Shown here: piece by piece, positions 1,307 to 1,537 of the stretch
Numbering within the stretch: position 1 is the first letter of the stretch
Layout of the letters: the number at the start of each line of letters is the position of its first letter
DNA from: a virus
Lineage: Monodnaviria > Loebvirae > Hofneiviricota > Faserviricetes > Tubulavirales > Inoviridae
DNA length: 5,926 bases
Direction: 5' to 3' (one strand)
IMG/VR virus record: IMGVR_UViG_2547132272_000001
Coordinates: 1 to 5,926 of that record
The notes under the pieces: model-generated
What the model saw: only the letters and a program-made list of their open reading frames with translations
What the model was told of the DNA's origin: nothing
The model's database searches: none
Made by a program: the position numbers and the translations under genes

Positions 1307-1537
1307 ATGGAATCTCGTGAAAATGTTATTCTTGGCTCGATTTGTGATGCTAAATCAGGTGGTGATTGCAAAGAAATTAAACTTACTTTTTCTGAGATTC
1401 CATACCCGCAACACTCTGCTGATGTTGATTACTCCTCTTTGGCGAACAGTTGGGGTGTTGCGTTTTCATCTGTAGTATTTCTTTATCTATTTAGTTTATC
1501 CATTGCTCAAGTCATTAGACTTGTAAAAAATGCTTAG
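1307..1537 (+). CDS. Small protein (76 aa) with a hydrophilic Cys-containing N-terminal half and a hydrophobic C-terminal about 30 aa; occupies the gVII/gIX slot, so a candidate minor coat protein of the virion tip
   Basis: It is the only ORF between gV and gVIII that is not riddled with stops. ATG at 1307 follows GGGAAG at 1292-1297. The C-terminal segment SWGVAFSSVVFLYLFSLSIAQVIRLVKNA is membrane-like, as Ff pVII and pIX are. AGGGAG at 1536-1541 overlaps its TAG stop and serves the gVIII start. Confidence 0.5.
   Translation: MESRENVILGSICDAKSGGDCKEIKLTFSEIPYPQHSADVDYSSLANSWGVAFSSVVFLYLFSLSIAQVIRLVKNA

Follow-up and report, generated by a model that had tools for sequence, protein, structure and literature searches.

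Candidate proteins for the leading end of integrative inoviruses: ORF76 and a micro-gene behind gVIII

Which proteins cap the leading ('round') end of a filamentous phage that has a single gene where the Ff phages have two? The question is raised by a 5926-nucleotide (nt) stretch of inovirus DNA (IMG/VR record IMGVR_UViG_2547132272_000001, positions 1-5926; "the window" below). The interval between its gV (1028-1300) and gVIII (1547-1768), the place of gVII and gIX in Ff phages, holds one substantial open reading frame (ORF) of 76 codons, ORF76. The original prediction, made from the letters of the DNA, had called the other frames of this interval unconvincing, and the ORF listing bears this out: ORF76 is the sole substantial open frame, and the only sizeable alternative (1287-1475, 62 amino acids (aa)) has stops in relatives. 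Several readings had been offered, and the best supported of them is a genuinely different tip architecture, in that a second small protein is encoded downstream of gVIII (1806-1895). It is probable, although well short of certain, that ORF76 and this micro-protein together form the leading cap and so do the job of pVII and pIX in Ff phages. The notion of a single tip gene holds for the slot between gV and gVIII but fails for the genome as a whole.

ORF76, its family and the gene behind gVIII

The elements on which the argument turns are the following.

1307-1537, + strand: ORF76, 76 aa, ATG start, full-length match to the profile of PHROG 3679
1779-1800, + strand: GC-rich hairpin of 9 base pairs directly 3' of gVIII, in terminator position (RNA fold)
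1806-1895, + strand: micro-ORF, 29 codons (MISLYDLWCVVAFLWGLLCAWAVIQGFRG), unannotated, recognized by conservation in its own frame

ORF76 is a real gene and no sequencing artefact. It matches phrog_3679 with an expectation value (E) of 5.5e-22, residues 2-76 lying on positions 2-88 of the 88-position profile; the function of PHROG 3679 is unassigned, and the family comprises at least 62 distinct members of 64-121 aa. Homologues found by phmmer/HMMER and profile searches (65-97 aa) are all unnamed or 'hypothetical' (WP_096883970.1 in RefSeq, for example). They amount to 36 protein clusters plus 37 further IMG/VR contigs, and come from E. coli (the prophage of strain 300709 carries one), Salmonella, Citrobacter koseri, Pectobacterium, Chelonobacter and metagenomes; the phages are integrative inoviruses of Enterobacterales and Pasteurellaceae. 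Its place is the same in every context examined (E. coli, Salmonella, Pectobacterium, Chelonobacter, metagenomic and IMG/VR loci): gV comes before it, gVIII directly after it and gIII-gVI-gI-gIV further on. Loci with a different type of replication genes (Rep_trans or Putative_G5P) are no exception, which implies that ORF76 travels with the structural module. The N-terminal 44 codons are under purifying selection (ratio of nonsynonymous to synonymous substitution rates, dN/dS, 0.2-0.5), and ORF76 carries the family signature in full: a Cys pair, an acidic linker, a W-G-x-A-F helix ending in [KR]-N-A, and the gV-gVIII slot. (Frameshifted ORF76 genes occur in some prophage copies, namely P0037, P0038, P0041, P0045 and P0046. 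One lineage, represented by L021:4640-4924 and L025:3684-3968, has an extra 94-aa ORF upstream of the ORF76-family gene, placed in L025 between gV and that gene.)

Outside its own family ORF76 finds little. Searches of Pfam and NCBIfam, a PDB sequence search and Foldseek returned nothing meaningful, and tblastn against phage records gave chance PhoH matches only; a consensus-like member of the family, run against the same records, found two metagenomic inoviruses and nothing else. Matches to WD40 proteins and to long multi-domain or multi-stretch proteins were rejected as spurious, due to the WD-repeat-like word WGVAFS. Two scans of a genome-contig collection yielded nothing, the collection holding one genome per species and the prophage-bearing strains probably being absent from it. 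No paper on PHROG 3679 or on the micro-ORF was found in the literature.

The micro-ORF comprises 23-29 codons across loci, starts directly after the post-gVIII hairpin and shares nucleotides with the start of gIII. The core of its product, F-[LI]-W-G-L-L-C-A-W-A-V-I-x-G-L, hardly changes even between phages with no more than 35-45% identity in ORF76. Pairwise frame-specific codon counting over 11 loci gives, for the micro-ORF's own frame, 308 codon differences that are synonymous and 208 that are nonsynonymous, and 23/461 and 18/471 for the other two; variation is seen at 14/15 third codon positions, but at only 7 first and 4 second positions. The synonymous excess is confined to the micro-ORF's own frame, which shows that selection acts on the peptide of the micro-ORF rather than on the gIII leader that it overlaps. 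(The thought that the micro-ORF might be a by-product of conservation of the gIII signal peptide was rejected on the same ground: differences in the gIII frame there are almost exclusively nonsynonymous.) The micro-ORF is a real gene under purifying selection. It is unannotated by RefSeq/PGAP in the two E. coli records checked, automatic gene callers missing it or merging it, and no other small hydrophobic ORF of the region is conserved among the loci compared. The product is hydrophobic, often has D or E near its N-terminus and has a basic residue near its end.

The overlap with gIII is itself conserved. The gIII start codon is formed by adjacent Leu and Cys codons of the micro-ORF (CTA TGC; 1854-1861 in the window), and the embedded ATG (YTA TGY) is present in 37/41 distinct contexts; the neighbouring, first Leu codon is free to vary. 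That YTA is kept at the second Leu only implies a dual-coding constraint. The gene caller puts the start of gIII at the equivalent of position 1859, and RefSeq has gIII of the E. coli 300709 prophage starting at the same embedded ATG; in-frame alternative starts lie at 1847 and 1826. The preceding hairpin folds, as RNA, with -17.2 kcal/mol (z -2.96). In relatives it is canonical, with a T-run; the T-run of the window copy is interrupted, and a consensus terminator scan did not call the window hairpin. Good Shine-Dalgarno (SD) motifs are found 5-8 nt before the micro-ORF ATG in several loci.

The two genes belong together. When IMG/VR was scanned with a degenerate DNA motif for nothing but the core of the micro-ORF, 40 contigs came up, all of inovirus size and 38 of them new; an ORF76-family gene lies 300-385 nt upstream of the micro-ORF in 37/38 of the new contigs, and the exception ends at the contig edge. 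Conversely, the micro-ORF is present in essentially every intact ORF76-family locus. The comparison with gVII/gIX regions of relatives that had been suggested was run on six canonical-pair loci and the loci with a single ORF76 gene. Relatives found through gV (83-94% identical) fall into these two classes, and gV is part of a replication module common to both. The six relatives with the canonical gVII+gIX pair between gV and gVIII lack ORF76 as well as the micro-ORF, and their gIII begins straight after the terminator. Their pVII matches PF19978 in Pfam (E 1e-11 to 1e-12) and both proteins of the pair match PHROG minor coat families. ORF76 and the micro-ORF strictly co-occur and are mutually exclusive with the canonical cassette. 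A relative in which ORF76 was split into gVII and gIX would have pointed to an artefact in the window; relatives either keep ORF76 intact or carry the unrelated canonical cassette.

Two further loci deserve mention in their own right. L005:3040-3289, with a gV that is 94% identical, has a 33-aa pVII-like ORF and a pIX-like ORF that is unusually long (52 aa), and lacks a micro-ORF; neither of its two ORFs matches the tip families of Pfam or PHROG, and the locus may represent a third variant of the round-tip cassette. Dulem virus 53 (PP511688.1, L069, 2483-3070), a metagenome-derived phage from lemur saliva, has the trio of ORF76-like gene, gVIII and micro-ORF.

A mosaic junction lies inside ORF76, at about 1466 (codon 53): the prophage of E. 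coli 300709 is 90.7% identical to the window over 28-1466 and then diverges. Relative to L006, the synonymous substitution rate (dS) of ORF76 is 0.6 for the N-terminal part and saturated for the helix. A junction at this place implies that the head can move together with the replication genes while the helix goes with the structural module; such breakpoints show head and helix to be separately exchangeable. This fits modular exchange as seen in UPphi, an enterobacterial dif-integrating inovirus that has its gII/gV module in common with Ypfphi and IKe-like structural genes (PMC7307601).

Predicted architecture of ORF76 and resemblance to pVIII

ORF76 is composed of two unlike parts, as had been noticed at the outset. 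Residues 1-45 are hydrophilic and include Cys13 (1343-1345) and Cys21 (1367-1369), 8 residues apart; from residue ~46 to residue 76 the protein is hydrophobic, with a basic tail at its end. There is a single hydrophobic segment and no signal peptide. An AlphaFold2 model built on a 36-sequence alignment divides the protein as follows.

1322-1390, + strand: ORF76 codons 6-28, predicted beta-hairpin (strands 6-13 and 21-28; AlphaFold2)
1430-1531, + strand: ORF76 codons 42-75, one continuous alpha-helix of 34 residues (AlphaFold2, predicted local distance difference test score (pLDDT) 88-97)

Cys13 and Cys21 flank the turn of the predicted hairpin, and a linker follows it. The helix begins with an acidic N-cap, VDYSSL, and finishes in the basic sequence IRLVKNA; together with this basic C-terminus it is the most conserved part of ORF76. 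The proposal of a fused or elongated pVII/pIX-type protein must therefore be taken apart: a single helix behind a hydrophilic beta-hairpin head does not support a pVII-pIX fusion, which was rejected; "elongated" stands, in the sense of a pIX-sized helix with a basic C-terminus to which an acidic N-terminal domain of 45 aa has been added.

Charge is distributed in the same way throughout the family (statistics refer to the 62 distinct members). In 98% the N-domain has a net negative charge (mean -3.7), in none is the 15-residue stretch ahead of the helix net positive, and the last 8 residues have an average net charge of +1.8. An acidic N-terminal side combined with a basic C-terminal end indicates, by the positive-inside rule, a predicted topology with the N-terminus out and the C-terminus in. 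All capsid proteins of Ff phages are oriented in this way before they assemble. In the round tip of f1, both pVII and pIX turn their basic C-termini towards the DNA and expose nothing but their N-termini (PMC10175506).

Exactly two N-domain cysteines are present in 60/62 members, at a spacing of 6-13 residues; in the alignments C21 is invariant and C13 is kept in at least 90% of sequences. Conservation of the pair argues for a periplasmic or external N-domain, in which a putative Cys13-Cys21 disulfide would staple the modelled ectodomain. Elsewhere the head is variable: its length ranges from 36 to ~70 residues or more, its sequence differs widely, and a 121-aa member (L041:4867-5232, reverse-complement coordinates) has a much enlarged N-terminal domain with extra cysteines. 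Variation of this kind suggests an exposed, diversifying surface, which could serve opening of the secretin gate, adhesion or simple capping.

The conserved helix resembles the major coat protein of the same phage. Alignment of the ORF76 helix with the C-terminal half of its cognate pVIII (...SIAQVIRLVKNA versus ...AGVRWVLRMVKSS) has an hhalign score of 23.3 (P 4e-5); 200 column shuffles have a mean score of 8.9 (standard deviation 2.0, maximum 16.2) and 0/200 reach the observed value (z ~7). Against non-cognate pVIII of the Ff/IKe type the score is 9.5. The N-caps are also alike, VDYSSL in ORF76 and VDLSQL in pVIII (P 0.009, reached by 2/200 shuffles). The aligned stretch is short (the C-terminal 22-23 residues) and lies inside a membrane helix, so that convergence is possible; the likeness could reflect either paralogy or convergent packing. 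In Dulem virus 53 the ORF76-like protein ends in GGRILRFFR, an echo of GRYILGFFKRV in its own pVIII, which hints that the two C-termini co-vary.

The same comparison in canonical phages distinguishes the two Ff tip proteins: pIX scores 13.4 against its own pVIII (P 0.014), pVII only 6.7. Layer 1 of the f1 tip consists of pIX and pVIII in alternation, around an inner bundle of pVII (PMC10175506). Because it is pIX and not pVII that resembles its own pVIII and alternates with it, analogy places ORF76, with moderate confidence, in the pIX position and the micro-protein in that of pVII. In its situation and build, ORF76 agrees with the 32-aa pIX of Ff phages (f1/M13/fd): directly upstream of gVIII, no signal peptide, a single helix and a basic C-terminus.

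The proposed cap protein and rival explanations

The favored explanation can be set out as a sequence of steps. ORF76 would be a bitopic inner-membrane protein with its acidic 45-residue N-terminus in the periplasm and its basic C-terminus in the cytoplasm. Neither it nor the micro-protein would use a signal peptide for insertion into the inner membrane, and its acidic head would be translocated and oxidised in the periplasm to yield a small hairpin closed by the Cys13-Cys21 disulfide. At the pI/pXI-pIV machine, the basic C-terminal ends of the pair would nucleate assembly on the packaging signal, and pVIII would polymerise behind the cap so formed. Within it, the micro-protein would make up the inner, pVII-like helix bundle, and ORF76 would occupy the pIX position, alternating with the first pVIII layer, its basic C-terminus touching DNA or the packaging signal. 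We infer that ORF76 enters the virion in five copies; five hairpin domains would then be displayed on the outside of the leading filament end. With the micro-gene located behind the gVIII hairpin and gIII initiating inside it, expression of both would be low, as suits five-copy proteins.

Several observations weigh against this explanation. ORF76 and the micro-ORF have no Pfam or PHROG match to pVII or pIX at E up to 10 or 1 (pVII being represented by PF19978 Inovirus_G7P_2 and PHROGs 7781/19107, pIX by PHROGs 10143/28333), and hhalign comparisons with small pVII and pIX alignments are not significant (P 0.15-0.37: 0.15 for the ORF76 helix against pIX, 0.26-0.37 for the pVII comparisons). Solved structures, the tip chains of f1 and M13 included, yield no match. 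Confidence in the ORF76 hairpin is only moderate (pLDDT 55-69). The choice of the pIX rather than the pVII position for ORF76 depends on one argument, and an indirect one. No cultured phage record contains the ORF76 family, its relatives among phage records being metagenome-derived and labelled 'hypothetical'. The micro-ORF start in the window is not preceded by an SD-like motif, and its ATG may be sequestered, since a possible outer stem of the hairpin (1771-1776 paired with 1804-1809) would take it in. Finally, the prophage copy in the window may be defective, its gII being cut by an IS3-family element (see below).

Absence of homology to pVII and pIX is also what would be expected if ORF76 were a membrane-anchored periplasmic protein that never enters the virion: an assembly or secretin-gating accessory, a superinfection-exclusion factor or a receptor-masking factor. 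The cap would then consist of the micro-protein, alone or with pVIII. An N-domain that varies widely, in proteins of 64-121 aa, would suit a host-interaction factor, and a bioRxiv study concludes that gIX is entirely missing from several integrative filamentous phages, whose leading end may differ (10.1101/2023.12.30.573655). What counts against a non-virion ORF76 is the nature of its most conserved part, a helix with a basic C-terminus that mimics the DNA-contacting end of the cognate pVIII; this is hard to explain in a protein that stays out of the capsid. Strict co-occurrence with the micro-ORF and the structural module, exclusivity with gVII+gIX, and a location directly upstream of gVIII, like that of gIX, also argue against it. 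We regard it as unlikely, and yet as an alternative to be taken seriously.

A second alternative, that ORF76 yields both the 76-aa protein and a pIX-like peptide from an internal start, goes back to the original prediction. The in-frame TTG that it pointed to exists (1439-1441), and initiation there would produce a peptide of 32 aa, the size of pIX. Ff phages do use in-frame internal starts, pX being made from gII and pXI from gI. In the window, however, there is no SD-like motif within 18 nt upstream of the TTG. A check for in-frame ATG, GTG or TTG within 14 codons of the helix start, extended over 11 diverse loci, found a candidate in 6/11, 0 of them with an SD-like motif, and none in 5/11; position and codon vary where a start is present. 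A 32-aa internal product is thus no conserved feature of the family, and a second small hydrophobic protein is already provided by the conserved micro-ORF, which leaves the dual-product explanation with a slim chance. That ORF76 is a gVII-gIX translational fusion or the result of an assembly or frameshift error is least credible of all, having nothing more in its favor than occupancy of the gVII/gIX slot: there is one hydrophobic segment, residues 1-45 are hydrophilic and predicted to be beta-structured, neither half resembles pVII or pIX, the full-length frame is kept in at least 62 distinct sequences from independent genomes and metagenomes, and near-identical copies are present in three independent assemblies.

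A broader generalization is doubtful and is offered tentatively: that in a large group of integrative inoviruses of enterobacteria and Pasteurellaceae the leading end consists of a pair unlike that of Ff phages, a pVIII-derived cap protein that displays five copies of a variable, disulfide-stapled domain, and a micro-protein whose gene is dual-coded with the gIII start. Were this so, the 'blunt' end of these filaments, supposedly inert, would be a second functional surface, for instance for opening the pIV secretin gate or for binding host or matrix ligands, and the ORF76 family would be a natural template for pIX-type display. Annotation pipelines could label PHROG 3679 and include the micro-ORF.

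The window copy and known systems

The window is an inovirus with an otherwise Ff-like gene order: gII, gV, ORF76, gVIII, gIII, gVI, gI, gIV. The genes around ORF76 and the micro-ORF are listed here.

85-1014: gII, C-terminal part (G2P_X_C)
1028-1300, + strand: gV, single-stranded DNA-binding protein, 90 aa (Pfam PF02303 Phage_DNA_bind, E 1.3e-23; phrog_1199)
1547-1768, + strand: gVIII, major coat protein precursor, 73 aa, with signal peptide (phrog_2186, E 2.7e-25)
about 1859-3319, + strand: gIII, adsorption/termination protein (phrog_3942, E 3.4e-146)
3316-3636: gVI (DUF2523)
3640-4710: gI (Zot)
4676-5926: gIV (secretin)

For gVIII, the Pfam match to Phage_Coat_B (E 8e-4) is under the gathering score; RefSeq calls a homologue 'major capsid protein'. 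gI and gIV overlap by 35 nt (4676-4710), gIII and gVI by 4 nt (3316-3319), with a GTG start for gVI, and the stop codon of gIV is the exact end of the window.

Near-identical copies of the window phage are found in two Logan assemblies and one IMG/VR contig. A megablast search of GenBank phages with the whole window gave nothing beyond a 165-nt secretin match, and a plasmid search gave no match. E. coli chromosomes carry related prophages in tandem, in some cases adjoining hipBA, which implies an Enterobacterales host range and an integrative lifestyle; in E. coli 300709 (L014; NZ_CP025903.1, 1777775-1793209) the related prophage is present as a complete tandem duplication. Tandem duplication is likewise known for Ypfphi and CTXphi. 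At the left edge of the window (nt 1-34), the first 27-34 nt have no match in an intact phage genome (L001) and are 100% identical to what comes just after an IS3-family transposase gene in several E. coli chromosomes. This flank implies that gII has apparently been truncated here by an insertion sequence, which is why this prophage copy may be defective.

UPphi, Ypfphi and CUS-1 have the same hosts and lifestyle as the ORF76 phages, with tandem prophages adjoining hipBA. Unlike the ORF76 phages, UPphi901 is reported to have IKe-like structural genes, that is, a canonical cassette. A review of Ypfphi lists the morphogenesis genes and leaves the tip proteins unresolved (PMC4266046). A 2023 preprint argues that gIX is missing from integrative filamentous phages and that the leading end of these phages 'could be very different' (10.1101/2023.12.30.573655). 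What makes up the leading end outside the Ff/IKe group is a recognized question, for which ORF76 and the micro-protein are a concrete candidate pair, and one that concerns widespread prophages of E. coli, Salmonella, Citrobacter, Pectobacterium and their relatives. New here are the conserved partner gene, which had escaped annotation, the overlap by which it is dual-coded with the start of gIII, the pattern of co-occurrence and exclusivity, and the pVIII-mimicking helix.

Among proteins of known function, pIX is one of the closest counterparts of ORF76. To the features already listed can be added a C-terminal end that resembles the cognate pVIII in both, and an expected orientation with the N-terminus exposed and the C-terminus towards the DNA (PMC10175506). 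Unlike pIX, ORF76 has an extra N-domain of ~45 aa with a Cys pair and a predicted beta-hairpin, and its partner gene is not adjacent. The micro-ORF product is comparable with the 33-aa pVII of Ff phages in size and, in many cases, in an acidic N-terminus, a hydrophobic helix and a Gly-rich end with one basic residue. The micro-ORF often has no good SD and follows closely on a highly translated gene, in both of which it is like gVII of f1. The differences are that the micro-ORF lies downstream of gVIII, behind a hairpin, and overlaps the gIII start, whereas pVII is encoded between gV and gIX; and that the terminal Arg typical of pVII (10.1101/2023.12.30.573655) is found in few micro-ORF members only. 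With its own pVIII, ORF76 has in common an acidic N-cap (vD[YL]S.L) and a C-terminal [IV]L[KR].V[KR].A motif; unlike pVIII, it has no signal peptide, its helix is ~10 residues shorter, and its N-terminal hairpin is absent from pVIII.

The last comparison is with an artificial system. Engineered pIX and pVII display has established that a foreign N-terminal domain on a round-tip protein is tolerated and exposed (PMC10175506). The ORF76 head would differ from such constructs in being natural, conserved, stapled by a putative disulfide and present on what would be every copy, which suggests that nature may already use N-terminal display on a round-tip protein.

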